Assembly: GCA_003176075.1 (NCBI GenBank)
Contig: PSRN01000280.1
Location: 1 to 47,365, forward strand
Source: Bdellovibrio sp.
GTDB taxonomy: Bacteria > Bdellovibrionota > Bdellovibrionia > Bdellovibrionales > Bdellovibrionaceae
Direction: 5' to 3'
Length of the DNA: 47,365 nucleotides
The number at the start of each line of letters is the position of its first letter. Position 1 is the stretch's first letter. Made by a program: the position numbers and the translations under genes. The notes beneath the pieces were generated by a model that was not told where the DNA came from, made no database searches, and was given only the letters and a program-made list of their open reading frames with translations. This document shows positions 2,214-45,058 of the stretch, in pieces.

Positions 2214-2398
2214 CCTGAGAAATGTCTTCTGGAGGACTGTCTTCCAGAAAAATGACTGCCAAAACTGACGAACGTGATGATTCCCCATGTAACCGTACCC
2301 CATGGGACCATTATCCTTGATCTGGTTTTGTTTCCAGAACCCAAAATGATCCATGTCTCACAACGAGACAGAGGCTTGGAAATGAGCAATTCAAAGTG

Positions 2399-2913
2399 TC
2401 ACTTCAAACTATACTCTGTCCAAGCGTTCAACAGGCCTTCCCGCAATTCCTGGAGAGATGCTGTCAGAAGAATTTTTGAAACCTTTGAAGCTCACTCAGA
2501 AGGCATTCGCGAATCACATCGATGTCGATATCAAAACGGTGAACCGTTTGATTAAAGGACACGCTGCTGTTACACCAGAACTCGCTGTGACTGCCGGTGT
2601 AGCTCGTTAAGGTTTCCCTTGGTCATTGAATCGGATGGTCTTTAACTTCGGCCGGCAAGTCTTGGGTGAGACAACCGGGGGGCAGATACATATGGCAAGT
2701 GGGCCGGACACACGGAGATCAATTTGCCAAATGGAGCTTTGCGGGGAGCTCGCCGATTTTCCCTTCCCACCCGCGGCACTTATTATACGGGACAACCAAA
2801 GTCCCTCCAAGTGGGCACCTGCCAGCTCGTACAGAGGCGAGGGGAGGACTCAGCATATTGAAGAGTCTATTCGAGACTCCCTCGCCGCCAAACTCAAGAT
2901 TATCCCTTACAAG
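2399..2913 (-). pseudogene. Decayed second copy of the last ~27 codons of the TadG-like gene, split by a ~434-bp insertion
   Basis: Region 2399-2436 (rc: LLNAWTEYSLK-stop) matches 3032-3070 (PLSNAWTEDSFK-stop). Region 2871-2913 (rc: DNLEFGGEGVS) matches 3073-3116 (SDLEFGGEGVS). Nucleotide identity is about 80-85% by eye, with one 1-nt indel. Confidence 0.55.
2434..2610 (+). pseudogene. HigA-like HTH antitoxin remnant, truncated at the C-terminus with no partner toxin
   Basis: Hand translation gives GLPAIPGEMLSEEFLKPLKLTQKAFANHIDVDIKTVNRLIKGHAAVTPELAVTAGVAR-stop. The PGE(I/M)L..EFL motif and the HTH resemble the HigA family. Only 51 codons follow the ATG at 2458, and the usual C-terminal ~35 aa are missing. 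Confidence 0.5.
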
Positions 2914-3031
2914 CAGCAGTTGATTTTTCTAACTGACTGGGCCCTCGGTTGCAATAACGGAGCTTCCACAGCAGTATGTGCAACTGCCCCCTTGAGGTTC
3001 TCCCGCTTGATTTGATCGATATTTTTCGCCA

Positions 3032-5251
3032 CTACTTGAAACTGTCCTCTGTCCAAGCGTTCGATAGCGGACCCGAGACACCCTCGCCACCAAACTCAAG
3101 GTCACTCCCTTGCAAATACTCACCGTCCACCATTTTCACTGAATAACCGGTGCGGCCTCCCGCAAAGCAGTTTCCGGGAACCGCCGCGTTGGGAGGCTGG
3201 GCGTCGTTGATGACGAATCTTTCCTGGCATTGGCCAAACCGGTCCACTGGATCCAAACGATAATCACCCGGCTGGGTCATGTGCCAGCTCGTCAGTGTTT
3301 CGATGAATGCGGTGGTGGCTCCTTGATTGGCGCCGATATAATAAGAGAGCATATTCCAGGGGTAAATGTTGTTGGTTCGCGAGAAAACAATCTGATCCCG
3401 CACGGTCATGGACTCGTAGGGTTGGCCAGCTCCCTTGCGATACCCCAGATCACCCCGCACCTGTGTGTTGGCGAAATCGTCCCGGTTCATCAACCTCACC
3501 GCATAGTTGCGCCAAAAATCCGGCTCTATGGAATAATAGGTGATGTCGAACTGGTCAGGAATCACAAAGGCAATTTCCAAGTCACGGAGTGCAACCGTTT
3601 TGTTGCCTTGACTGTCCCACGCCAAAATATCACCAGTGCTGGCGGGATCACTCAGGTCCGTGCTCGAGATTAGGTGATTGTAGTAATCCCACTTGGCTTG
3701 CGTCGGCGGCTGATTGCGCTGCCAGATGGCGGAAGTGACTTGCCCCATGGAAAGCGTGCTCTTGGTGCCGATCTGGTCGCCGGTGTAGCGGCTGAAATCG
3801 GCTTGCAGGCTATCATTCGACACCGCGGGCGGAGCCTCGCCCGAAACCATGCGGGGCGGAAGATTAGGATCGATCTTGTCAGCGCCTTGCGAAGCGGCGG
3901 CTCCCTGCGGCCATTCGCGGTAGTACCAGGGACCGATACGGCCGCCGAAGGGCTTGGCGAAAGCACGCGCGGTGAGTTTCACCGCGCCGAAGGGACTGAA
4001 AGGAATTTTCGGCGACGTGGTCGCTTGCACTCCCACATAGGCCGCGCACCAGGGATTTTTTTCGTAACCCACGGTCGTATGCCAAAGGCGATTCGCGGGA
4101 GCATTGAGGTCATTGGGATCGGTGATCAAATTGACCAATTGATCAATCATCGCGGGGTCCAATCCGTCGCCGTATCGCGGTTTGCTGAAGGTGCCTCCCG
4201 CATTGATAATTCTCGGTTCAAAGCCGATGCTTGTATGGCCGTCGCAATCGCCTTCAAGATAGACATACAAAGGGGTCAGGAAAATTTCATTCAACCACTT
4301 GGGCGGGATCTGGTCATTGCCGTCGGTGCCTTGGCAGGCGGTTTCTCCGAGAGCGTTGTAGAACGTGAAGGAGCCCTGATTTCCCCCGGCTCCTCCCGCC
4401 CGGGATCCGGTTTCCGCTTGATTGATGTCTATTTGTTCCTGGTTTTGCGCCGTCAAGTTCTTGTAGAATGTTGTCGCGGCCCCGGCGCGAACCGAATCAC
4501 CGTCGATATCACGAAGATCGGTGGTGGAATAACTGATATCGTTGGCCAGGTGGTTGAGGACCTGTTTGCGGTTTTTCATTTCCTGGCGATAGGCAAGGAT
4601 AAAGCGGGCCAGAGCAAACCAAGTCAGACTCGAGCTGATCCGGCACTGCCTCTTGGTCTTGTCGACCAGATTGCGTGAGGCATCTTCGATGGATCTGGCG
4701 AGACTTCCGAGAATTCCCTCCGCCAAGCCGAAATTAATCCCGTTTTCCGAGGGAATTCCAAGCAACGGGATATTGACCCCCGCGCACATATCCCGGCAGT
4801 AGTCTTCGTTGGGTTCCATCAAGTCAAAAACGGGATAGTTGATGCAAAAACTCGTGGGACAAACTTGACCATTGGCCGCCGTAAAGGGCTGGTCCACCGA
4901 GCCTGGCCCCCGCAACGTCTTATTCACCGAATCGTAAGGATGATTGATAGTGTCGCCGGCCATGCCGAGCATCCGATAGCGCCAAACCATCAGCTTCCAA
5001 GCTTGCCGGAGTTGATAATTCACGTGCGCAATGGCGTTCATGGACTCGGCCTGCTTCATGGCGCCATAGTAGGCGGCAAGATCCACCGAGTTTTGCAGAT
5101 TGATTTTGTGATGGACCAGAAGACCGACGTTGACCACCATGGCGAAGAACACAAAAAGAACCTGGAATATCAAAGCGACGAATATGGCGATTTGTCCGCG
5201 ATCTCCGGTGGAGCCCCCGCGTTGGCCTTTGGCAGTGATCATAGTCATCAT
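3032..5251 (-). CDS. TadG-like large Flp-pilus-associated protein (739 aa)
   Basis: ATG at 5251 lies 5 nt after GAGGG, so the ORF-track TTG at 5314 is over-extended. The N-terminus GQIAIFVALIFQVLFVFFAMVVNVGLLVHHKINLQNSVDLAAYYGA is the typical TadE/TadG-like N-terminal segment. A large soluble domain follows. Confidence 0.7.
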   Translation of the reverse strand: MMTMITAKGQRGGSTGDRGQIAIFVALIFQVLFVFFAMVVNVGLLVHHKINLQNSVDLAAYYGAMKQAESMNAIAHVNYQLRQAWKLMVWRYRMLGMAGDTINHPYDSVNKTLRGPGSVDQPFTAANGQVCPTSFCINYPVFDLMEPNEDYCRDMCAGVNIPLLGIPSENGINFGLAEGILGSLARSIEDASRNLVDKTKRQCRISSSLTWFALARFILAYRQEMKNRKQVLNHLANDISYSTTDLRDIDGDSVRAGAATTFYKNLTAQNQEQIDINQAETGSRAGGAGGNQGSFTFYNALGETACQGTDGNDQIPPKWLNEIFLTPLYVYLEGDCDGHTSIGFEPRIINAGGTFSKPRYGDGLDPAMIDQLVNLITDPNDLNAPANRLWHTTVGYEKNPWCAAYVGVQATTSPKIPFSPFGAVKLTARAFAKPFGGRIGPWYYREWPQGAAASQGADKIDPNLPPRMVSGEAPPAVSNDSLQADFSRYTGDQIGTKSTLSMGQVTSAIWQRNQPPTQAKWDYYNHLISSTDLSDPASTGDILAWDSQGNKTVALRDLEIAFVIPDQFDITYYSIEPDFWRNYAVRLMNRDDFANTQVRGDLGYRKGAGQPYESMTVRDQIVFSRTNNIYPWNMLSYYIGANQGATTAFIETLTSWHMTQPGDYRLDPVDRFGQCQERFVINDAQPPNAAVPGNCFAGGRTGYSVKMVDGEYLQGSDLEFGGEGVSGPLSNAWTEDSFK

Positions 5252-5342
5252 TTTCCCTCGGATCTCAGACCGCCACAAGAAGCGAAAGGGGTTTTGACTT
5301 CCTCGCGGGGCCAAGTCAGACTTTTGGAACGAAATAACGGCA

Positions 5343-5372
5343 CTGCGGAGGTGCCGAAGGCACCAACTTGGA
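5343..5372 (-). repeat. Hairpin element copy, sense with the TadG-like gene
   Basis: The rc reads TCCAAGTTGGTGCCTTCGGCACCTCCGCAG followed by TG. It lies 91 nt upstream of ATG 5251, in the divergent intergenic region. Confidence 0.8.
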
Positions 5373-5383
5373 GAGGCTCGACC

Positions 5384-6349
5384 ATGGTCGGTTCGCTGAA
5401 TTCGCGTAAACCATTACTGTCTTCCCTATTGATGGTCGCGGCATTGATTCTTTTTTGCGGTCAACCGTCCCATTCCGAGACACTGTTTGAAGGTTACTAC
5501 AGGGTTTTCCGGTCCGGGCAACACGTCGGTTTCTTTATTATGCGGCACCGCTTTGAGCCGGTGGAGGGGAAGAAAAAGAAGTTCAAGTTCACGTCCACCA
5601 CATTTATGAAAACGGTGGGAGAAGATGGCGAGGACACCGAAAGCATCAAAGCCGTCTGCGACGAAAATCTGGTGCCGCTCAGTTATTCCTATACCGCTCT
5701 TTCGGGAAAAAAAACCCGCACCATTGACGCCACTTTCGCTGACGGCAAGTACACGGCCCACATCAAGAACAACGGGCAAGACGAAAAAATTCAAAAGCCG
5801 TTGCCCACAGGGGTTTTTCTCAGCCAGTTCCTGCTTCACTATATTTTGCGGACGAAACAAGGCTTAAAGCCAAACCTCAGAGTTTCGTACCGTGCCTTGG
5901 CCGAGGAATTCGGCGAAGTGAAAGATGGAGTCGCCACGACAAAGGATTACGAAGTCCAAGAGGGACTGCGGGTCTTGCGCGTCGAAAACACCTTCCTGGG
6001 TCAAAACTCCATCAACTTTGTTTCCGAAAAAGGCGAAATCATATCGACCCACATGACCGAAACAAAGATGGCTCTTGAACTGACCGCGAGCCCCTCAACG
6101 GCGACCGCTGATTTCAAGGTTCCAAGCCCCGTGCTTGCTGGACTCTTCGGTGAAGTGCCGACGGGCCAAAAAAATATCCTTTCGCAAATCAAACATGAAG
6201 AAGTGCAGGTGCCAAAGCCAATCATTCCCGAGGGCGCGACCAAACAGCAAGGGGTCCCGGCTGGTAAAGGAATCCAGCTCAAAGCGAAAATTCCACGGGA
6301 TGAACCGCCAAACCCGCCGGCTTCCGACTCCGCCAAGGACCCCCAATGA
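5384..6349 (+). CDS. Hypothetical secreted protein
   Basis: ATG at 5384 lies 7 nt after GGAGAGG. The signal peptide is MVGSLNSRKPLLSSLLMVAALILFCGQPSHS. The ORF-track start at 4865 runs antisense through the TadG-like gene and is over-extended. Confidence 0.65.
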   Translation: MVGSLNSRKPLLSSLLMVAALILFCGQPSHSETLFEGYYRVFRSGQHVGFFIMRHRFEPVEGKKKKFKFTSTTFMKTVGEDGEDTESIKAVCDENLVPLSYSYTALSGKKTRTIDATFADGKYTAHIKNNGQDEKIQKPLPTGVFLSQFLLHYILRTKQGLKPNLRVSYRALAEEFGEVKDGVATTKDYEVQEGLRVLRVENTFLGQNSINFVSEKGEIISTHMTETKMALELTASPSTATADFKVPSPVLAGLFGEVPTGQKNILSQIKHEEVQVPKPIIPEGATKQQGVPAGKGIQLKAKIPRDEPPNPPASDSAKDPQ

Positions 6350-6353
6350 CTGG

Positions 6354-6418
6354 CCAAGCCGGTACCTTCGGCGTGGGCGGCGTGGGCGGCCCGGCCGCCA
6401 CGGGCGTCACCTCCGCAG
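6354..6418 (+). repeat. Expanded (65-nt) copy of the hairpin element
   Basis: The sequence is CCAAGCCGGTACCTTCGGCG[TGGGCGGCGTGGGCGGCCCGGCCGCCACGGG]CGTCACCTCCGCAG, followed by TG ATG. The inner segment CGTGGGCGGC-CCG-GCCGCCACG is a hairpin. The outer stem is degenerate. Confidence 0.6.
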
Positions 6419-6420
6419 TG

Positions 6421-7509
6421 ATGACTCTGGAAAAGCTGGCCGGTCATCATCTGATCATGGGGCTATCGGGTCCCACCTTAAGCGCCGAAGAAAGACGCTT
6501 TCTTGTGGATTACGACATCGCCGGGGTCATTCTGTTTCCCCGCAATCTGAATTCCCCGCAACAGATCTATGACCTCACGGCCGAGATCCAGTCCCTGAGT
6601 TCGAAAACCGTTTCGGGACTTCCCTTGTTTGTGTCCATTGATATGGAAGGCGGAAGGGTCGCCCGCTTGAAAGAGCCCTTCACCCAATGGCCGCCACTGC
6701 GCCAGCTGGGCATCGGCGATTCCGCCCAATTGGCATTTGATATGAGTTTAGCCATGGGAGTTGAACTTGGCGCGGTCGGCATCAATCTTGATTTTGCGCC
6801 TGTCCTGGACATTCTGACGAATCCGGAAAACACGGTCATTGGCGACAGAGCCGTCAGCGACACCAGCGAAAGAGTCATGAAACTGGGTTCGGCGCTGGTG
6901 CGTGGCTACCTCAAGTCGGGGATCATTCCTTGCGGCAAGCATTTCCCCGGCCACGGCAACACACTGGTCGATAGCCACGAAGACCTGCCCGTCGAGCAGA
7001 CCGACCTTGAGCGCCTTCGCGCCGTCGAACTTAAGCCCTTTCTGCGCGCCTTTCGGTCGGGATTGGAAATGGTCATGAGCTCGCACATTTTGTTTCCCCG
7101 GATCGATCCCGAGTGGCCGGTGACTTTGTCAGAGATTTTTTTGCGCCGGATTTTAAGGGAAGAACTGCGCTATCGGCATTTAGTCATCAGCGATGACTTG
7201 GATATGAAGGCTCTGTCAAACCATTACGACCCCCGCCTCGTTCCGGTGCGGGCCCTTCAGGCGGGGATCGACCTCCTGCTTTATTGCAATGATCCGAGCT
7301 CACCGGAGCGAGCCATCGATGCCATCTGCAAGGCGGTGGTCGACGGCTGGCTCGACCGGCGACAGTTGGAAGAGAGCTTTGGGCGGATCGAGCAATTCAA
7401 GCGCGAGCATCCGGGGGCCAAACCACGACCCGCAAAGGAAACGGCTCTTCGACTTGTCGGCGCGGCCGAGCACCTGGAATTGGCGGCGACGATTCGGCGA
7501 TATACCTGA
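6421..7509 (+). CDS. nagZ: Beta-N-acetylhexosaminidase NagZ (GH3)
   Basis: GH3 motifs are present: GINLDFAPVLDI, KHFPGHG and DDLDMKAL. The N-terminus MTLEKLAGHHLIMGLSGPTL matches typical NagZ starts. An alternative SD-supported start at 6346 would add 25 residues encoded by the repeat element. Confidence 0.85.
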   Translation: MTLEKLAGHHLIMGLSGPTLSAEERRFLVDYDIAGVILFPRNLNSPQQIYDLTAEIQSLSSKTVSGLPLFVSIDMEGGRVARLKEPFTQWPPLRQLGIGDSAQLAFDMSLAMGVELGAVGINLDFAPVLDILTNPENTVIGDRAVSDTSERVMKLGSALVRGYLKSGIIPCGKHFPGHGNTLVDSHEDLPVEQTDLERLRAVELKPFLRAFRSGLEMVMSSHILFPRIDPEWPVTLSEIFLRRILREELRYRHLVISDDLDMKALSNHYDPRLVPVRALQAGIDLLLYCNDPSSPERAIDAICKAVVDGWLDRRQLEESFGRIEQFKREHPGAKPRPAKETALRLVGAAEHLELAATIRRYT

Positions 7510-9499: not shown

Positions 9500-10630
9500 A
9501 TGAAAAAATACTTCGGTTGGTCAGGCGCGATCCACGCTGCGATTTTCGCGGCCATCATTTACTTTTGTGCCACTTACGATTTCTCGCACAATCCGTTCAC
9601 ATCAACCCAGAACGCCACCCCGGTTGCCGTAGAACCCCAAGCACCCCAAGCACCGGCCGCAACCGTCGCTGGGACCCCTGCAGCTCCTGGCACCCCCGCA
9701 GCTCCTGCCGATGAATTAAAAAGTGAAGTGAAAAATGAAGTGAAAAAAGATGAACCCGCCAGTGCCTCCGCCAACACCTCCAAGGAAAATTCGACCAAAG
9801 AAGATTTAATAACCCCGGCCAAAACCAGCCCGGTTCCGCTCGTCAAGAGCAGCAAACCCAAACGGCCCGGTAAATTCATCGCCAAGACTTTGCCTAAAGC
9901 GAAGGCCCGCGCGAAAGAAGCGAAGCCCCTGCACGGCGTGGCCGAAGAGGGCATCAGCCAAGCCAAAGAAGAGATGGTTCAAAACAATGAAGTTCCGTCC
10001 AAAGTTGAAGACAAGGCCACCGAAACTACCGCCGCCACTAACACCGCCACTACCGCCGACACTCCAGCCCCAGTGAATCAAGCAGTGGAGCAGAAACCCG
10101 TCGAAGAAAAAGCCGCTGCCACCCAACCAGCTGAAGATCCTCGCCGCGAACAAAAGCTGGCCCTCTTAGCTCGCTTGCGAGCCGAAAACGACCAAGCCGA
10201 GGCCGCCATGAAAAATGGGACGGATCAACAGGCTGAACAGAAGGCCGCCGCGCAAGGCGGAGGATCCGGCAACACGAACGCCAACCCCGAGGTTCGTGGT
10301 CTCAGAGATTTACAGCAACAACCTGGTAACCCGATTCCGGCTTACAGCGAAGACGACCGCCTGAACAACCGCCAAGGAACCGTGATCTTCAACGGCTTCG
10401 TAAATACAGAAGGAAAACTGGAAAAATTTGAGTTGGTTCAATCTTCTGGATTTCGCAGCCTTGATGGAAAAACCCTTAAGGCCCTTAAACAATGGCGCTT
10501 TCTTCCGGGTCAATCCGGCTGGGTGGAGTTGCTTTTCCGTTGGGACTTGAAGGGCGGCGCAAACCAAATGCCTTCAGGTTTGCGTAACAAACAGGCTACC
10601 GAAGCATCACCTGCTAACCAAGCACGCTAA
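9500..10630 (+). CDS. tonB: Energy transducer TonB
   Basis: GGAGG lies 5 nt before the ATG. It has an N-terminal TM helix, a Pro/Ala/Lys/Glu-rich linker and a C-terminal TonB domain (NPIPAYSEDDRLNNRQGTVIFNGFVNTEGKLEKFELVQSSGFRSLDGKTLKALKQWRFLPG). Confidence 0.85.
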   Translation: MKKYFGWSGAIHAAIFAAIIYFCATYDFSHNPFTSTQNATPVAVEPQAPQAPAATVAGTPAAPGTPAAPADELKSEVKNEVKKDEPASASANTSKENSTKEDLITPAKTSPVPLVKSSKPKRPGKFIAKTLPKAKARAKEAKPLHGVAEEGISQAKEEMVQNNEVPSKVEDKATETTAATNTATTADTPAPVNQAVEQKPVEEKAAATQPAEDPRREQKLALLARLRAENDQAEAAMKNGTDQQAEQKAAAQGGGSGNTNANPEVRGLRDLQQQPGNPIPAYSEDDRLNNRQGTVIFNGFVNTEGKLEKFELVQSSGFRSLDGKTLKALKQWRFLPGQSGWVELLFRWDLKGGANQMPSGLRNKQATEASPANQAR

Positions 10631-14443: not shown

Positions 14444-14594
14444 GGAATTGCCCCTCTGCCTTAAAGCTTATCAGACGACTTAATTGTCGCAAAGTGGCAC
14501 CATGGAGCAGTCATGAAAAGTCTCAGGTTGAGACATTGAAACCTTGTCACCATTATCTTTCAATGGGAAAAAGGTTTGGAGTATGCCATCAACT

Positions 14595-14624
14595 CCCAAG
14601 TCGGTGCCTTCGGCACTTCCGCAG
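14595..14624 (+). repeat. Hairpin element copy directly before galU
   Basis: The sequence is CCCAAGTCGGTGCCTTCGGCACTTCCGCAG. It ends 6 nt before GTG 14631. Confidence 0.8.
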
Positions 14625-22851: not shown

Positions 22852-22911
22852 TTAAATCTAAATTTTCAGAGAAGGCTCGCGTATTTTCAACCAAAACTAA
22901 ACGCAGTTTAC

Positions 22912-22969
22912 GATGTATTATAAGTCATCATTATTACATTTTTTGATGTATTAAAAGACATCATTATTA
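22912..22969. repeat. Two 25-bp direct repeats with 33-bp period
   Basis: The copies are GATGTATTATAAGTCATCATTATTA (22912-22936) and GATGTATTAAAAGACATCATTATTA (22945-22969), with 2 mismatches. Each contains GATG...CATC. Confidence 0.75.
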
Positions 22970-34226: not shown

Positions 34227-34745
34227 ATGAAGAATCTGCGGGGGGACTTGGTCCCATTCATGAAAAGCGAAGAAATTCACAAGGTGGTTCGCAACTTGGC
34301 CAGGCAAATCGAAATGGACTACGAGGGCAAAGAGATTATTTTCATTTGCCCCTTGCGGGGATCCATTCACCTGATGGCCGACTTGGCGAGGGAGGTTCGC
34401 CTCCCCCAGCAGATCGAGTTCGTCCACATGAAGGCGGGCAAGAAGGGCGGGACCATTTCCGTGATCAAGGATATTGGCATCGACATCGCCGGCAAGAATG
34501 TGATTATTGTCGAGGAGATCATTGATAGCGGCCGGACCTTGATATTTTTGCGGGACCGACTGCTGTTGGGTCGACCTGCTTCTTTGCGGATCTTAACCCT
34601 TTTGGACAAGCCGGCACGAAGAGACCTGCCGATTCAAGCCGATTACATCGGCAAGGTCATCGACGATCGCTACATCGTGGGATACGGCATGGACTCGGAA
34701 GAATCCGGCCGGCATTTCCCTGACATTTACTTTTTGGCGAATTGA
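34227..34745 (+). CDS. hpt: Hypoxanthine phosphoribosyltransferase
   Basis: It has the PRPP-binding motif VIIVEEIIDSGRTL and the C-terminal YIVGYGMD. Confidence 0.85.
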   Translation: MKNLRGDLVPFMKSEEIHKVVRNLARQIEMDYEGKEIIFICPLRGSIHLMADLAREVRLPQQIEFVHMKAGKKGGTISVIKDIGIDIAGKNVIIVEEIIDSGRTLIFLRDRLLLGRPASLRILTLLDKPARRDLPIQADYIGKVIDDRYIVGYGMDSEESGRHFPDIYFLAN

Positions 34746-34960
34746 GGGGTCATGTTTCAAAGACAACTCGTGATCGTTTTCTTGATCTCCGTGGTCCTTT
34801 TCTTTTTGATCAATGCGGTTGTCAGTTGAGCGGTGGCCCTCCGCACTCCCATCGGATTGAGTCAGATTGATAACATCGCTACAAGAAACCGTGTCTAGGA
34901 TCTTAGTCCGGACACAAATCTGGTTGCTTTATACCCAATTTAGGTTTTATCTTACCCAAA

Positions 34961-39280: not shown

Positions 39281-40168
39281 ATGAATAACGAAACAAGAAC
39301 CCTTTGGATTTCCGTGGCGGCAGGCCTTTTTGCCATGTTTCTTGTTTACAGTTTTTTGCAAGAGCAGAAAGCGGAAATCATTAAACCTTACGGCGGATTG
39401 ATGAACGTGGTGGTCGCGGCCAAAGACATTCGCGAGATGGAGACGATTGACGATTCGATGATTGAGACGAAGGAAAAGCCCCAGAGTTTCGTCGAACCCG
39501 GCGCGATTCGAAATCCTGACGAAGTCGTCGGCCAGGTTTCAGTGGCCGCCGTCAAAAAGGGCGAACAGATCCTGCAAACCAAACTGCTGCAACCGGGGCC
39601 CCAGACAGGAATTTCAATGCAGGTTCAGCCGACTAAACGAGCCATCACCTTGCCGGTGAATGAGTACTCGGGCGTGGCCCGCTTAATCCGCCCCGGTGAC
39701 CGGGTCGATATCATCGCCGCCGTCGACGTCGGCAAAGGACCCAACCAGAAGCGCGAGGTGTCCACCATCCTGATGGACGTGCCCGTGCTCGCCACCGGGG
39801 TGAACGTCGTGAATAATATTCCCCGCGTCTTCGAGGTCGATGACTCCGCCAAGTCCGTAAATCAAATCACCCTCACCGGGGATAGCAAGTACGCCTCGGT
39901 GACCATCGAGGTCTCACCGAAGGAAGCCCAGGACCTCGTTTACTTGATGGCCACCGGTGGAGCGAACAATATCTACTTCACCTTGAAGAATCCCAATGAC
40001 CGCACCGGCCAGCCACGGCTGCCCTCTTCGACGGCCGAAGGCGTGACGGGTCGTCCGGTGATGGACCTGACCCCGGCGCCTTTGCCGCCTCCTTCCGCCC
40101 CAACCGTGGCGGCACCGGCCCCCCTGAAGGCCTCGCCGCGACCTCGCAAAGGATATCGGCCACTATGA
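39281..40168 (+). CDS. cpaB: Flp pilus assembly protein CpaB/RcpC
   Basis: It has an N-terminal TM, SAF-like and RcpC-like regions (VVVAAKDI...GEQILQTKL; ITLPV...VARLIRPGDRVDIIA) and a Pro-rich tail. Confidence 0.8.
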   Translation: MNNETRTLWISVAAGLFAMFLVYSFLQEQKAEIIKPYGGLMNVVVAAKDIREMETIDDSMIETKEKPQSFVEPGAIRNPDEVVGQVSVAAVKKGEQILQTKLLQPGPQTGISMQVQPTKRAITLPVNEYSGVARLIRPGDRVDIIAAVDVGKGPNQKREVSTILMDVPVLATGVNVVNNIPRVFEVDDSAKSVNQITLTGDSKYASVTIEVSPKEAQDLVYLMATGGANNIYFTLKNPNDRTGQPRLPSSTAEGVTGRPVMDLTPAPLPPPSAPTVAAPAPLKASPRPRKGYRPL

Positions 40169-41811
40169 CGAATCGATCGGCCCGCTTCGTCTGCTTAACC
40201 CGCTTCGTCTGCTTGAGCCGCTTCGGTTCCTTGAGCCGCTTCGTCCCCTTGAGCCGCTTCGCGGTGGGACTGTTGGTGTTTTTCATGACCGCCCATGTTC
40301 TTGATTGGCTGGATGGGCAGGAGGCGAGAGCGCAGGAACTCCCGAGCCCCGCCGAGGAGACAGTCAAGGAACCGCCAAAAAAGAAAAAACCGAGGCGCCG
40401 GAAATTCTTGAGTCTCACTCTCGGGGTGGAGGCGGACGAAAAACTCAATTTCCAAGTCAAGGAACCCAAACCCAAAGGGGATTACAAAAGGGTCGTCAAA
40501 GTCGAGTACTCGCCCGAGATCAATTCCTTGCGGCTGACCCCGATTGCCGAGGGGATCGCGACCCTGCAAATTTATGACAAGAAGGATCCCAACAAGCGCA
40601 TTCTTTCCGAGTTCCGGCTTGAGGTCCGCAAGAGTCGCCTCGATTCAGTCGCGCGCGAAATCAAAAGCCTGCTCGGCGATATCGAGGGCATCACCATCAA
40701 AATCGTCAACAACAAAGTCATCGTTGACGGGCAAATCGTCATTCCCAAGGACATGAACCGCATCTACACCGTCGTGCAACAGTATGGCGACCAAGCCACT
40801 TCGCTGGTGACCATGTCGCCCCTGGCGCAAAAAAGAATCGCTGAATTCATTGAAAAAGACATCGGCAACCCCGAGGTGCGGGTGCGGGCTCTTAACGACA
40901 AATTTATTTTGGAGGGGATGGTCAACAACGACGAGGAAAAGACGCGGGCTGAAATCGTCGCCAAAACCTACGTCCAACCCGTGTTCCTTGAGCCGGCCGA
41001 GCGCGAAGGGGTGCTTAAGAAGCCCCGACCCGCGAACGACGGCATCATCAACTTGATCAATGTTCGGCTCGCGGGTCCACCACCGACTCCGAAGCACGTT
41101 CAAATCGTTGTTCACTATGTGGAGCTTTCAAAATCCTACCAAAAAGGCTTTCGCTTTCAATTCACGCCGAACCTGCAAGACAATTCCCATGCCACATTCT
41201 CCACCGGCAACACCCAATCAACCAGTTCAGGGTGGGCGCTCACTGGCATCATCGACAACTTGTTTCCGAAACTCAATTGGTCAAAGCAACATAACTACGC
41301 GCGTGTTTTAGAAAGTTCGACCTTGATTATTCAAGACGGTAAAAAAGGAGTTTTGAATTCCGTCCAGGAAGTCCCCTACCAAACCGCGGCGGGACTCAAC
41401 GGTAGCGTCCCCGTCACCGCCTTCAAGGATGTCGGAATTGCCACGGCGATCACTCCCATCACCCTCAATGAACGATCTGATTCAATCAGTCTTTCGATGG
41501 AATTCGACATCAGCGCCCTCGTTGGAATGACCGATCAAGGGCCCCTCACCCACCGCAATAAAATCACCACCGATTTGATTATTCGCAGCGGCCAAAGTGC
41601 CGCCATCGGCGGGCTGATCACCAATGGGGCTTCGACCGACTACAACAAGACCCCCAAGGGATACCCGGACAACCCGATCATCAGCCTTTTCGCCTCGAAA
41701 GCGTTTCAAAGAAATCAATCCCAGTTCGTCGTGTTTGTGACTCCAATTATTAAGAGCCATGCCAGCGCTGGTTCCGAAAAGGTGAAGCGGAAGTTCCGGC
41801 TGAGCCAGTAA
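40165..41811 (+). CDS. cpaC: Flp pilus secretin CpaC/RcpA
   Basis: It has a BON/secretin-N-like region and a C-terminal secretin domain (LESSTLIIQDGKKGVLNSVQEVPY...IRSGQSAAIGGLI...VVFVTPIIK). The ATG overlaps the cpaB stop. The true start may be GTG at about 40264, after the repeats. Confidence 0.85.
   Translation: MTNRSARFVCLTRFVCLSRFGSLSRFVPLSRFAVGLLVFFMTAHVLDWLDGQEARAQELPSPAEETVKEPPKKKKPRRRKFLSLTLGVEADEKLNFQVKEPKPKGDYKRVVKVEYSPEINSLRLTPIAEGIATLQIYDKKDPNKRILSEFRLEVRKSRLDSVAREIKSLLGDIEGITIKIVNNKVIVDGQIVIPKDMNRIYTVVQQYGDQATSLVTMSPLAQKRIAEFIEKDIGNPEVRVRALNDKFILEGMVNNDEEKTRAEIVAKTYVQPVFLEPAEREGVLKKPRPANDGIINLINVRLAGPPPTPKHVQIVVHYVELSKSYQKGFRFQFTPNLQDNSHATFSTGNTQSTSSGWALTGIIDNLFPKLNWSKQHNYARVLESSTLIIQDGKKGVLNSVQEVPYQTAAGLNGSVPVTAFKDVGIATAITPITLNERSDSISLSMEFDISALVGMTDQGPLTHRNKITTDLIIRSGQSAAIGGLITNGASTDYNKTPKGYPDNPIISLFASKAFQRNQSQFVVFVTPIIKSHASAGSEKVKRKFRLSQ
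40182..40265 (+). repeat. 18-bp tandem repeat x4.5 at the 5' end of cpaC
   Basis: The units are CCGCTTCGTCTGCTTAAC, CCGCTTCGTCTGCTTGAG, CCGCTTCGGTTCCTTGAG, CCGCTTCGTCCCCTTGAG and CCGCTTCGCGGT. If translated they encode (A/T/S)RF(V/G)(C/S/P)L hexapeptides. Confidence 0.85.
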
Positions 41812-41830: not shown

Positions 41831-44089
41831 GTGATCTTAAGCCCGAATTCAAATGTCATCGCGGTGAGCGGCGGAAAGGGCGGAGTCGGCAAGTCCGTCT
41901 TTTCCGCCAATCTGGCCGCGGCAATCCTGACGGAGTTGAAGACGCAAGTCTTGCTGATCGACGCTGACGCCCGCTCCTGCGGCGACCAGAACGTCATTCT
42001 CGGTCTCAGACCCCAAAAGACGATTGAAGAGGTTTCGACTTTTCAGGGATCTCTATCACCGCAATCCATTCCCCAAATGGTGACCGCCCACCCCTCGGGC
42101 TTGAGCTACATCGGGGCGGTTCGGGGGCCTGAGGAAATGCTCAAGGCCAACCCCGACGCCTTTATGAAACCGCTCGAGTTTCTCTCCCGGCACTTTAAAT
42201 TTATCGTCATCGACGTGGGAAGCGATCTCAACCCTTTGCAGGCGCAGCTCATCCATGAATCCACCGCCTTGATTATTCTCACCGTGCCGGAAGTTCTCGT
42301 CGTCAATCAAACGCAACGACTGATCCAATCCCTCCTTACGGCGACCCTGCCGTTTGACATGTTTCAACTCGTCATCAACAAAGTCGGCCCGGGCAGCCTT
42401 TCCCCCCAGGCCATAGCGCAAAGCCTTCGCTTGAACGCCATTGGCCTGATCCCCCAAGACGATATCACCACCGCGACCAGCTTATCGAAGTCGACCCCTT
42501 TCGTGCTGGCGGCCCGCCAGGCCCCGGTGACCGCGGCCTACCACGAAGTCGTCCGTAAACTCACCGGCGGCATTCTCCAGCGTCTTAAGTTAGTGCAAAA
42601 ACCACAGAGTTTGAACCTGAGCGCCGCCATCGCCTCGGGGGCCAAGGCTGGTGAAAAGCCCTCGGCCGCGCAGGCCAACGCCGCACTCCTGAGTAATGCC
42701 GGCGAAGAGACCGACCCGCGCAATATTCTCAAGCTCCGCATCCATTCGGAACTTATTCGGGCGATGGACCTCAAAAAGGGGATTGCCGACACCAATGGGG
42801 ACAAGGCGAAGGAAGAGGCCCTCCGGCAAAAAACACTCGCGACCATCACCACCATTATCGATAAAGAAGCGCAGGGGATCGCGCGCGATGAGCGCTCACG
42901 AATCATTAAAGAAGTTTTGGAAGAAGCACTCGGTTTGGGCCCGCTGGAGGATCTTCTTGCCGATCCGGCGGTCACCGAAATCATGGTCAACGGCTACCGG
43001 AGAATATTTATCGAAAAATCGGGGAAGTTGATCATGACGCCGGTCACTTTCACCTCGAACCTCCATTTGCGCAACGTCATCGAGCGGATCGTCACCCCCC
43101 TGGGCCGCCGAATTGACGAGAAAAATCCCTATGTCGATGCGCGCCTGAAAGACGGCAGCCGCGTCAACGCCATTATCGAGCCTTTGTCGATCGATGGCCC
43201 CGCCTTGACCATTCGAAAATTCAAAAAAGGCGGTATTACTGCCGAACGTTACATCGAATGGGGATCGATGACCAAATCGATGGTCGATTTTCTGCGCATT
43301 TGTGTTGAAAACGCGCTCAACGTGGTGATCTCGGGCGGAACCGGCTCCGGTAAAACCTCGCTGCTCAACATGCTTTCGACATTTATTCCTTCAAGTGAGC
43401 GGATCGTCACGGTGGAAGACGCGGCTGAATTGCAACTGCAACAGGAACACGTGGTGCGGCTTGAACCCCGCCCCGCCAACATGGAGGGGACAGGCGCGGT
43501 GACGATTCGCGATCTGGTCCGCAACTCGCTGAGGATGCGGCCCAATCGAATCATCGTCGGTGAAACCCGGGACGGCGCCGCCCTCGATATGTTGCAAGCC
43601 ATGAACACCGGTCATGACGGTTCAATGACGACAACCCACGCGAACAGTCCGCGCGAGTGCATCTCGCGCCTTGAAACCCTCTGTCTGATGGCCGGCATGG
43701 AGCTTCCGGTTCGCGCCATCCGCGAGCAAATCTCCAGCGCCGTGCAACTGATCGTGCAGATTTCACGGCTCTCCGACGGCAGCCGCAAAGTCACCAGCAT
43801 CACCGAAGTCGTCGGCATGCAGGGGGACACGGTCACCATGCAGGAGATCTTCCGCTTCAAGGAAACGGGATACGACAAGAACCGAAGAATCGTCGGTGTC
43901 TTTCAAGCAATGGGACTTATCCCCACCTTCATTGAGAAACTGGAACAAAAGGGCGTCATCATCCCACGTGATATCTTCTCCAATGAACCGCCCAAACCGG
44001 CCGCCGCGGCGGTCAACAAGACCGCGTCGCTGATGCCCGCCAGCCTGCCCAACCTGAAAAAAACCGGAAGCGCGGGAGGAAAAGCGTGA
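41831..44089 (+). CDS. Fused CpaE/TadZ-like (MinD/ParA) and CpaF/TadA secretion ATPase (752 aa)
   Basis: AGGAG lies 5 nt before the GTG. Residues 1 to ~250 are MinD/ParA-like (VIAVSGGKGGVGKS, LLIDAD). The C-terminal ~450 aa are CpaF-like (SGGTGSGKTSLLN, RIIVGETRDGAALDML, GHDGSMTTTHANS). Confidence 0.85.
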   Translation: MILSPNSNVIAVSGGKGGVGKSVFSANLAAAILTELKTQVLLIDADARSCGDQNVILGLRPQKTIEEVSTFQGSLSPQSIPQMVTAHPSGLSYIGAVRGPEEMLKANPDAFMKPLEFLSRHFKFIVIDVGSDLNPLQAQLIHESTALIILTVPEVLVVNQTQRLIQSLLTATLPFDMFQLVINKVGPGSLSPQAIAQSLRLNAIGLIPQDDITTATSLSKSTPFVLAARQAPVTAAYHEVVRKLTGGILQRLKLVQKPQSLNLSAAIASGAKAGEKPSAAQANAALLSNAGEETDPRNILKLRIHSELIRAMDLKKGIADTNGDKAKEEALRQKTLATITTIIDKEAQGIARDERSRIIKEVLEEALGLGPLEDLLADPAVTEIMVNGYRRIFIEKSGKLIMTPVTFTSNLHLRNVIERIVTPLGRRIDEKNPYVDARLKDGSRVNAIIEPLSIDGPALTIRKFKKGGITAERYIEWGSMTKSMVDFLRICVENALNVVISGGTGSGKTSLLNMLSTFIPSSERIVTVEDAAELQLQQEHVVRLEPRPANMEGTGAVTIRDLVRNSLRMRPNRIIVGETRDGAALDMLQAMNTGHDGSMTTTHANSPRECISRLETLCLMAGMELPVRAIREQISSAVQLIVQISRLSDGSRKVTSITEVVGMQGDTVTMQEIFRFKETGYDKNRRIVGVFQAMGLIPTFIEKLEQKGVIIPRDIFSNEPPKPAAAAVNKTASLMPASLPNLKKTGSAGGKA

Positions 44090-45000
44090 ACGATTCAGCC
44101 GCCCAAGTCGGTGCCTTCGGCATCTCCGCAGTGCTTGCCAGTCCCTGGATTGCACTGCCCCTGATCGGGATTTGCGTCACCGTCGTCGTGTTTCTATGGT
44201 TCGACAGGCTCCTGGGGCGCTTTCTTTCGCGCATGACCTTCACCCGCGACGAAATGCTCCGTTACCTCGATATGATGCACGTCACGGCCGAGTCGAACAG
44301 GGTGACCGCGCTGCAACTTCTCGCGAGTTTGGGTCTTGGAGTGATCTTCTTTCTTCTTCTTTGGCCCCGCGCCACCCTCGGCTTGATCGTCGCCGGAGCG
44401 GTGACGGTCGGCATGTGGAATATCCCCTTGCTGTTGATCAAACGCCAATGGGAAAAGCGCTGCAATTTGTTTGTCGATCAAATGGTGGATGCGCTGACCA
44501 TCATGGCCAATGGCGTAAAGGCGGGCCTCTCCGTCACGCAATCCATGGACCGTGTCGTGGAGAACATGCCCAATCCCATTTCCCAGGAATTCAACCTGGC
44601 CCTCAGCCAAATTCGCATTGGCCGCAGCGTGGAGGAAGCCTTGCTTGACCTCGGAGAACGGATCCCCAAGGCCGACGTGCAGATGTTCGTTACCGCCATC
44701 AATATTCTAAAGGAAACCGGTGGCAATCTCGCTGAAACATTCCAGACCATCGTCGTGACGATCCGCGAACGGCAAAAGGTGGAGCGAAAAATCGAGGCGA
44801 TGACCGCGCAAGGAATCATGCAGGGTTTTATCGTATCGATGGTGCCCATCGGATTGATCACGATGTTTTATATCGTGGACCCCGGCTACATCACCCCGAT
44901 GTTCACCTCGACCTTGGGAATAATCCTTCTTTTGATCATGCTGGTTCTCATAGTTATCGGTGGTATTGCGATCCGAAGAGTTGTTACAATTAAGGTGTAA
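44086..45000 (+). CDS. tadB: Type II secretion F-domain platform protein TadB/TadC (single copy)
   Basis: GTG 44086 lies 6 nt after GGAGG and overlaps the cpaF stop. An alternative GTG at 44131 lies right after the repeat. T2SSF-type TM/cytoplasmic topology is present (ALTIMANGVKAGLSVTQSM, FVTAINILKETGGNLAE). Confidence 0.8.
   Translation: MNDSAAQVGAFGISAVLASPWIALPLIGICVTVVVFLWFDRLLGRFLSRMTFTRDEMLRYLDMMHVTAESNRVTALQLLASLGLGVIFFLLLWPRATLGLIVAGAVTVGMWNIPLLLIKRQWEKRCNLFVDQMVDALTIMANGVKAGLSVTQSMDRVVENMPNPISQEFNLALSQIRIGRSVEEALLDLGERIPKADVQMFVTAINILKETGGNLAETFQTIVVTIRERQKVERKIEAMTAQGIMQGFIVSMVPIGLITMFYIVDPGYITPMFTSTLGIILLLIMLVLIVIGGIAIRRVVTIKV
44102..44131 (+). repeat. Hairpin element copy at the cpaEF/tadB junction
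   Basis: The sequence is CCCAAGTCGGTGCCTTCGGCATCTCCGCAG, and its last G begins GTG 44131. Confidence 0.8.
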
Positions 45001-45028
45001 CGAATTTGCGGATGCGTGGGCGGCACCG

Positions 45029-45058
45029 CCCAAGTCGGTGCCTCAGGCACCTCCGCAG
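45029..45058 (+). repeat. Hairpin element copy at the tadB/YD-repeat gene junction
   Basis: The sequence is CCCAAGTCGGTGCCTCAGGCACCTCCGCAG. The loop is TCA instead of TTC and the stem is intact. It lies 23 nt before ATG 45082. Confidence 0.8.

Follow-up and report, generated by a model that had tools for sequence, protein, structure and literature searches.

The DNA analysed here, called the window throughout, is a single and entire contig of 47,365 nucleotides (nt) from an uncultured Bdellovibrio-like bacterium (Bdellovibrionota), in which a 30-nt hairpin repeat occurs at six loci in or near the 5' ends of tadB, a YD-repeat gene, galU, nagZ, a TadG-like gene and a gene for a secreted protein at the left edge. 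Pfam analysis of the window proteins returned a CpaE/F fusion, TadB (T2SSF), RHS/YD, NTP_transferase (GalU-like), GH3 (NagZ) and a TadG-like protein, which bears out the gene identities given in a preliminary description of this DNA, and the mid-window genes are of the ordinary housekeeping kind (PriA, the ast operon, YceG). Homologs of the window TadB, NagZ and AstD carry the source names Bdellovibrionaceae, Pseudobdellovibrionaceae or Bdellovibrio. The best reading of the results given below is that the repeat element behaves as very small selfish mobile DNA rather than as a conserved regulatory switch. The contig is the only one bearing these exact proteins.

Syntenic relatives were compared for the tad operon (L001 to L005 together with L089 and L090; TadB identity of 73-80%) and for the nagZ region (L006 to L008 together with L091). 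L006 and L008 additionally cover the TadG-like gene, the left-edge gene and galU, and L007 extends to the TadG-like gene only. Protein identity of the relatives sampled at the six sites was 59-80%, and the closest of them, L001, is an independent assembly from another sample (Logan DRR438477).

The repeat unit and its copies

With up to two mismatches allowed, the 30-nt consensus CCCAAGTCGGTGCCTTCGGCACCTCCGCAG was matched at four places in the window with one or two mismatches each, namely copy A (44102-44131, plus strand), copy B (45029-45058, plus strand), copy C (14595-14624, plus strand) and copy D (5343-5372, minus strand), exactly where the preliminary description had placed them; 100 dinucleotide-preserving shuffles gave no match at all, and none is expected. 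Pairwise identity among these four canonical copies is 26-28 of 30 positions. The unit is made of an asymmetric 5' flank (CCAAGTC), a 6-bp stem closed by a 3-nt TTC loop and a 3' flank (TCCGCAG), and its core is a 15-bp palindrome, GGTGCC-N3-GGCACC, which is perfect (6+3+6) in copies B and D. As described before, copy B has the loop TCA in place of the TTC of the others and keeps its stem, the 3' arm bears C-to-T changes in the copies at 44102, 14595 and 816, and CCGCAGTG is present in three copies (A, D and F). All single stem substitutions in intact units yield a G-U (or G-T) pair on the sense strand.

The two expanded copies of the preliminary description also exist, and were recognised by half-unit matches, reading and alignment: copy E at 816-878 on the minus strand and copy F at 6354-6418 on the plus strand. 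The 5' half CCAAGYNGGYRCC was matched at 6354 and the 3' half GGCAYYTCCRCAG at 816 (minus strand) and 6406, and the 5' half of copy E was seen by reading and alignment to bear a 3-nt GTC insert. Copy E is a head-to-tail dimer (E1, 846-878; E2, 816-845), whose 30-nt interior agrees in fixed register with the predicted junction of a 3' half and a 5' half at 19 of 30 positions, compared to 9.75 +/- 2.4 in shuffles (p about 2e-4), and whose two units score 36.8 and 20.5 bits with the covariance model. In copy F, 36 nt of unrelated GC-rich sequence, which holds GTGGGCGGC twice and contains a 9-nt tandem duplication, come between the 5' part of the unit and its 3' part; a reading of this copy as a dimer or nested copy was rejected, its interior not being element-derived (p = 0.5). 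Among the six loci there are thus one tandem dimer and one disrupted stem. The covariance model of the window copies, run with filters off, found no loci in the window beyond these six, and weak half-matches at 9689, 38709 and 2807 were rejected after inspection.

The unit is free of stop codons in all six frames, and none of the six loci has a stop in any of its three sense frames. Three reading frames are in use, giving QVGAFG in tadB, nagZ and the upstream YD frame, PKSVPS in galU and PSRRCL in the left-edge secreted protein. Since three frames are translated, selection does not act on a peptide, and conservation at the nucleotide rather than the protein level, as had been proposed, was confirmed.

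A second small GC-rich repeat may be associated with the element. The 11-mer GCGTGGGCGGC has four exact occurrences on the plus strand, at 6371, 6380, 30993 and 45014, two of them in tandem within copy F and one immediately 5' of copy B, and 10 matches were counted with one mismatch allowed versus about 1.4 expected.

Insertion sites and the hairpin

At each of the six window sites the element is absent from every relative sampled there. Copy A, CCCAAGTCGGTGCCTTCGGCATCTCCGCAG, a pattern match with one mismatch, lies at the 5' end of tadB on the plus strand, 16 nt past an ancestral GTG start (44086-44088, plus strand) that overlaps the cpaE/F stop (GTGA) and has the Shine-Dalgarno (SD) sequence GGGAGG upstream. 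A GTGA/ATGA overlap at the cpaE/F-tadB junction is common to L001, L002 and L003, and the window open reading frame (ORF) is open and in frame through copy A. Compared to L001, the window tadB is longer by 36 nt, in frame, with the GTGA overlap and the SD GGGAGG intact. The TadB of the relatives consists of GTG or ATG plus 8-12 codons followed by a PW(I/V)ALPL motif, and the window TadB reads MNDSAAQVGAFGISAVLASPWIALPL; these extra 36 nt, or 12 aa, are absent from the orthologs of L001-L003, and about 120 TadB homologs all lack the N-terminal insert of 12 aa. The database gene call starts TadB at a downstream ATG (44233; 255 aa), whereas the ortholog comparison supports 44086.

Copy C is inserted in frame past codon 4 of galU (ATG 14583, plus strand). 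The gene starts with ATG TCT CAA AAA GTG AAA AAA in the relatives and with ATG CCA TCA ACT, the 30 nt of the element and TTG CAA GTG AGA AAA in the window; in the alignment with L006 and L008 the ATG is common and the window has 36 nt more, in frame. The non-coding leader of galU (window about 14490-14575; L006 15240-15330; L008 15120-15210) is itself unusually conserved among the relatives, with the invariant blocks CAAAGTGGCAC, TTGAGAC, CTTGTC and TTTCAATGGGA, and holds in the window a hairpin, GTCTCA-GGT-TGAGAC, at 14520-14534. Unlike the repeat element, this leader could be a genuine conserved regulatory region.

At nagZ, the relatives show a single ATGAC(C/A)CT overlap with the upstream gene, and the window reads ATGACT, 69 nt of element and ATGACT, which is 75 nt more than in L006, L007 and L008, again in frame. 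The left ATGACT (6346-6351, plus strand) contains the stop of the upstream gene (TGA 6347-6349) and an ATG with the SD AAGGA, and the right one (6421-6426, plus strand) is the native nagZ start (MTLEKL..., homologs beginning MTLEQL...), so that the 6-bp duplication around copy F keeps the upstream stop and the downstream start alike. The database gene call begins NagZ directly past the element (6421; 362 aa), and the ortholog comparison supports 6346/6421. Copy E lies in frame, on the minus strand, in the signal-peptide n-region of the left-edge secreted protein, which starts at GTG 898. This protein reads MK(N/R)... and then directly the hydrophobic core in the relatives, compared to VRKIGQF-PSRRCLHELRRPGRLRRHFHR-SLVLFLSLFLAPFLALTA in the window, and 21 of its residues (about 63 nt) are absent from the orthologs.

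In these four copies (tadB, galU, nagZ and the left-edge gene) the ancestral SD and start codon are thus found upstream of the element, which is inserted in frame past codons 2-7. The intragenic copies A, C, E and F lie 8-20 nt past the start codon, with stems starting at +16 to +31, and the net inserts of 36 (tadB), 36 (galU) and 75 nt (nagZ) are all multiples of 3. The preliminary description had the element ending 0-91 nt before the start of the gene, which does not hold for these four genes. Over the loci, the position of the element relative to the start codon spans -121 to +20.

The remaining copies are found in spacers. Copy B, with the TCA loop, occupies the tadB-YD gene spacer on the plus strand, 28 nt past the tadB stop and 23 nt before ATG 45082; this spacer measures 81 nt in the window versus an overlap in L001 and 13, 35 and 50 nt in L002, L089 and L003 respectively. 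Copy D, on the minus strand, falls in the spacer of two divergent genes, the TadG-like gene on the minus strand (ATG 5251) and another on the plus strand (ATG 5384), both starts being set by protein alignment with L006 and L008. It lies 91 nt upstream of the TadG-like ATG and 12 nt from ATG 5384, antisense to that divergent gene, and the spacer has 132 nt in the window versus 88 and 83 nt in relatives. Because copy D is in a divergent spacer its orientation is uninformative; the copies informative in this respect are A, B, C, E and F together with the L001 copy described below.

Other features were noted in this part of the window. A perfect 12-bp palindrome, CGACCATGGTCG, at 5379-5390 includes the ATG 5384 of the plus-strand gene, and GACCATGGTC is found in L006 too. 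In copy D only (5338-5356, minus strand), the 3' arm can alternatively pair with GTGCCG just downstream, followed by TTATTTCGTT; this alternative hairpin is terminator-like, and the number of such sites is within shuffle expectation. In the window region 2355-3100, direct repeats at 2401-2434/3034-3067 (85%) and 2872-2898/3074-3100 (93%) suggest that the TadG-like gene has been partly duplicated at its 3' end, in a 677-nt spacer that has no counterpart in L006 and L008.

Insertion polymorphism is also seen in the opposite direction. The covariance model built from the window copies only (R1) found a copy in L001 (L001:273-306; 26.7 bits, E = 0.002), of the sequence GGCCAAGTC-GTCGTC-TTC-GGCGAC-TCCGCAT, with flanks and loop as in the window element. 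The orthologous site of the window is empty (TGAGGGGTCATG, 34743-34754, plus strand) and reads TGAGGGG-TCATG, and the alignment shows a 41-nt insertion in L001 only; a covariance model scan of the other relatives spanning this region gave no match. As the L001 copy is present where the window is empty, the family has been inserted independently in at least two lineages. Together with the missing element at the orthologous sites of the window copies, this marks the element, as judged from these alignments, as a recent, lineage-specific insertion and not a leader conserved with its genes. Close to the L001 site, a small conserved hydrophobic ORF of 25 residues (MFQ(R/K)QLV...VS*; window 34752-34829, L001 319-396) was noted directly 3' of a phosphoribosyltransferase gene and upstream of the flp pilin cluster.

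The L001 copy also bears on the hairpin. The preliminary description had asked for a check for compensatory changes with a covariance model over relatives, and in L001 five stem positions differ from the window while pairing is kept by two double (compensatory) changes and one U-G pair. In the stem alignment including this copy, 94% of cells are paired versus 33-50% once the 3' partner has been shifted. In a control set, 17 chance flank-plus-loop matches in viral contigs had at most 4 of 6 complementary stem positions, none of them having a complementary stem. With the stem changed and yet paired, it is the hairpin and not its sequence that is kept.

By covariance model, abundance amounts to 6 loci in the 47 kb of the window, 1 locus in the 15 kb of the closest relative L001 and 0 loci in about 158 kb of non-redundant DNA of the other relatives, that is, one copy (L001) in the about 173 kb of all relatives' non-redundant DNA compared to the 6 loci of the window. 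Weak matches of the model at L089:13941 and L008:20159 were rejected as they have no hairpin. The exact full-element pattern, with the stem sequence fixed, was matched neither in GTDB species genomes nor in JGI metagenomes. Half-element patterns gave singletons only, in unrelated taxa and with no identity beyond the pattern, and scans of viral contigs gave chance matches only. The stem varies between lineages, so the blank stem-fixed scans make this stem variant, as distinct from the whole family, private to the lineage. Literature searches turned up no described repeat of this kind from Bdellovibrio.

At the RNA level, the core hairpin is part of the minimum free energy structure of copies A, B, C and the L001 copy, and folding energies are no better than those of shuffles, save in the L001 region (z = -2.2). 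The preliminary description had noted that the 3' arm and tail read CACCUCC, and had suggested that the stem could mask or mimic SD/anti-SD pairing. CACCTCC is found in three of the six copies only and is absent from the other three, and initiation-region folds displayed no consistent pairing of a CACCUCC-like tail with the host SD; SD masking by this motif was consequently rejected. A conserved leader or an SD/anti-SD switch is not supported, the element being absent from the orthologs of relatives and variable in position, with CACCUCC not conserved and SD pairing not consistent. In accord with the earlier view that no described RNA family is present, Rfam gave no match at gathering thresholds over the whole window and none overlapping the elements at the relaxed threshold of E<=5. 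No U/T tract follows the core hairpin, and promoter and terminator scans gave counts at shuffle background. An intrinsic terminator reading is not supported, there being no T run past the core hairpin, nor are sigma-54 or sigma-70 promoter readings supported by the scans.

Other repeats of the window are of different kinds. In a secretin-like ORF (40165-41811), an 18-nt unit (CCGCTTCGTCTGCTTAAC-like) is repeated about four times head to tail at 40182-40253 (plus strand), which would give the protein a tandem repeat of 6 residues near its N-terminus. At 22904-22969, two tandem 33-nt AT-rich repeats, 85% identical, are found in an AT-rich non-coding stretch (22.7-23.0 kb), with several AT-only hairpins nearby.

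Comparison with known repeat classes

Repetitive extragenic palindromic sequences (REP) and their doublets (REPIN) are mobilised by RAYT, which are IS200/IS605-like Y1 HUH transposases. Transposition by HUH Y1 enzymes is not known to produce such a duplication, in contrast to the one site of the element, copy F, that has a 6-bp duplication. The element resembles REP/REPIN in being a 20-40-nt imperfect palindrome with asymmetric conserved flanks and many copies per lineage, in maintaining its hairpin while the sequence drifts between lineages, and in tolerating G-T in the active strand (PMC3116915). In size it is of the REP kind as well, with a 30-nt unit, a 6-bp stem, a 3-nt loop and six loci in 47 kb. 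On the other hand, REP/REPIN are extragenic and four of the six loci here (A, C, E and F) are intragenic and in frame; the GTAG-like tetranucleotide at the foot of the REP hairpin is present on neither strand of the element, whose flanks are CCAAGTC and TCCGCAG; and no inverted doublets of the REPIN type were found in the window, the only multimer being a direct head-to-tail dimer. Miniature inverted-repeat transposable elements (MITE) have terminal inverted repeats that match those of a parent IS and a size of about 50-500 bp, whereas neither end of the element (CCAAGTC, TCCGCAG) is the reverse complement of the other, its inverted repeat lies inside and the unit has 30 bp.

The small dispersed repeats (SDR) of cyanobacteria are reportedly 21-27 nt long, dispersed and apparently mobile, some with palindromic cores, and their insertions are said to be absent from orthologous sites and sometimes adjacent or nested; we know of no enzyme for them. 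With SDR the element has in common a length below about 30-40 nt, insertion polymorphism in both directions and a tandem dimer, which is a likeness of kind, the phylum being different and the sequence unrelated. To our knowledge, a start-proximal, in-frame and sense-oriented placement is not a described property of SDR. Mycobacterial interspersed repetitive units (MIRU) are reported to be short repeats at operon gene junctions, oriented as the flanking genes, able to form tandems and in phase, which leaves the translation signals of the adjoining genes intact. Their sense-oriented placement at operon junctions is like that of the element, but MIRU have 46-101 bp, are not hairpin-centred and lie between stop and start, compared to 30 bp, a hairpin centre and a position past the start codon here.

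The palindromic elements of Rickettsia (RPE) are repeats inserted in frame in protein-coding genes, producing translational fusions that the protein tolerates (PMC10969869). The element is likewise inserted in frame within ORFs; however, RPE measure about 100-150 bp and use one frame with a conserved peptide, as opposed to 30 bp, three frames and the extreme 5' end of the ORF. Finally, the cross-species conservation that characterises Rfam leaders and riboswitches is lacking at the tadB, YD, galU, nagZ, TadG-like and secreted-protein orthologs. The element thus falls outside the formal definitions of REP/REPIN, MITE and RPE. The preliminary description had dismissed REP/MITE-like behaviour, yet small mobile repeats do show two-way insertion polymorphism, tandem dimers and flanking duplications such as the 6-bp one found here.

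Interpretation and alternatives

We consider it rather probable that the element is a new family of mobile palindromic DNA of REP/SDR size, tolerated at the 5' ends of genes. It would be a lineage-specific, miniature and non-autonomous element, comparable in size to REP or cyanobacterial SDR, that has recently spread in this Bdellovibrionota lineage, landing where two genes meet or within the first 2-7 codons of a gene. Each insertion would add 36 bp, consisting of the 30-bp unit and a 6-bp target duplication, with which the net gain of 36 nt at tadB and galU agrees. The SD and start codon of the host gene would be retained, and its protein would probably be extended at the N-terminus, by 12-25 residues in TadB, GalU, NagZ and the signal-peptide n-region. 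The element would then be co-transcribed with its host gene, and read-through translation across it in TadB, GalU and NagZ would yield peptides such as MPSTPKSVPSALPQ; copies in short 5' spacers (the YD gene and the TadG-like gene) would be harmless, and any effect on expression would be a by-product. Intragenic copies would persist because the unit is free of stops in all sense frames and lengthens the gene by a multiple of three bases. The sense-strand hairpin would be the part needed by the propagation machinery, for which reason flanks and loop would stay constant and the changes in the stem would be of the compensatory and G-U kinds that preserve it.

Several observations weigh against this account. 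The known units number about 8, in two lineages. A target duplication is clear only at copy F (the perfect 6-bp ATGACT), flanks elsewhere matching at 1-4 of 6 positions by eye. No transposase or RAYT-like gene was found among the 20 window proteins scanned, from 47 kb of genome, and the termini, not being inverted repeats, point to no known transposase class. The six informative copies (A, B, C, E, F and the L001 copy) are all in sense orientation (one-sided p about 0.016), and the intragenic copies are all four at the 5' end and none at the 3' end, a placement with a probability of about 1e-6 against a uniform null and, under the fairer null that either gene end is tolerated (4:0), of about 0.06. 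Pure neutral tolerance predicts neither the sense bias nor the 5' bias, which hints at targeting or at selection at the RNA level.

Such selection is central to the reading of the element as a cis-acting RNA module in the 5' parts of mRNAs, a hairpin that an RNA-binding protein or RNase would recognise or that would tune initiation or mRNA stability, perhaps spread by mobility and now kept for the regulation of envelope and Tad-pilus genes. This is possible but, in our view, unlikely. The sense orientation of all six informative copies to their transcription unit would follow from it, as would the position of the intragenic stems at +16 to +31, just beyond the initiation footprint, and the compensatory pairs of the L001 copy. 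It also accounts for single stem substitutions of the G-U type in the sense strand of intact units, although G-T wobble would be equally tolerated in a top-strand single-stranded DNA (ssDNA) hairpin, so that this strand asymmetry is no proof. Five of seven loci adjoin tad/flp genes, an association that may be a sampling effect in a window centred on tad loci. An RNA module is harder to reconcile with an element conserved with no host gene in relatives, placed anywhere from -121 to +20 of the start codon and translated in three frames, with one locus a tandem dimer and another with a disrupted stem, with no consistent SD pairing and folding z-scores that are not significant.

It is very improbable that the 15-bp palindrome is a DNA operator for a dimeric transcription factor co-regulating these genes. 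The perfect 6+3+6 palindrome of copies B and D and the location of copy D in a divergent promoter region would suit an operator, but four copies are within ORFs past the start codons, A and B are within an operon, the asymmetric flanks are conserved as much as the palindrome and the sites are absent in orthologs. Moreover, both half-sites of the L001 copy are changed in a compensatory manner, which fits a hairpin and not a fixed protein-DNA code. Chance similarity or an assembly or adapter artefact, which the short length of the repeat and the sequence AAGTCGG, also present in some sequencing adapters, could bring to mind, can be practically dismissed: shuffles are expected to give no match, point changes distinguish the copies, these are in frame in real genes, and a diverged copy with a compensatory stem is found in an independent assembly of another sample.

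For mobile palindromic DNA, then, the sense, 5' and G-U patterns fit strand-specific insertion directed to 5' ends via a top-strand ssDNA hairpin, and they fit selection on the transcript alike, the data not separating the two. A more far-reaching possibility, which we regard as doubtful, is that 30 bp and a 6-bp duplication make up micro-mobile DNA of a new class, directed in sense to translation-initiation regions, and/or that the hairpin has been co-opted as a start-proximal RNA module tuning Tad-pilus and envelope genes of predatory bacteria. Such targeting could rely on ssDNA or RNA that transcribed genes expose at their 5' ends.

One consequence concerns annotation, as gene callers put the starts of TadB and NagZ downstream of the element and ortholog comparison puts them upstream. 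If the favoured account is true, even 30-bp elements can settle within the opening codons of essential genes of a compact genome without inactivating them, rewriting the N-termini of proteins (TadB, GalU, NagZ and a signal peptide), and the idea drawn from the RPE of Rickettsia would be extended to a much smaller unit and to another phylum. The sense-only orientation and the 5' bias, if they hold genome-wide, would suggest targeting linked to transcription or translation, or an RNA function, either of which would be new for such repeats.

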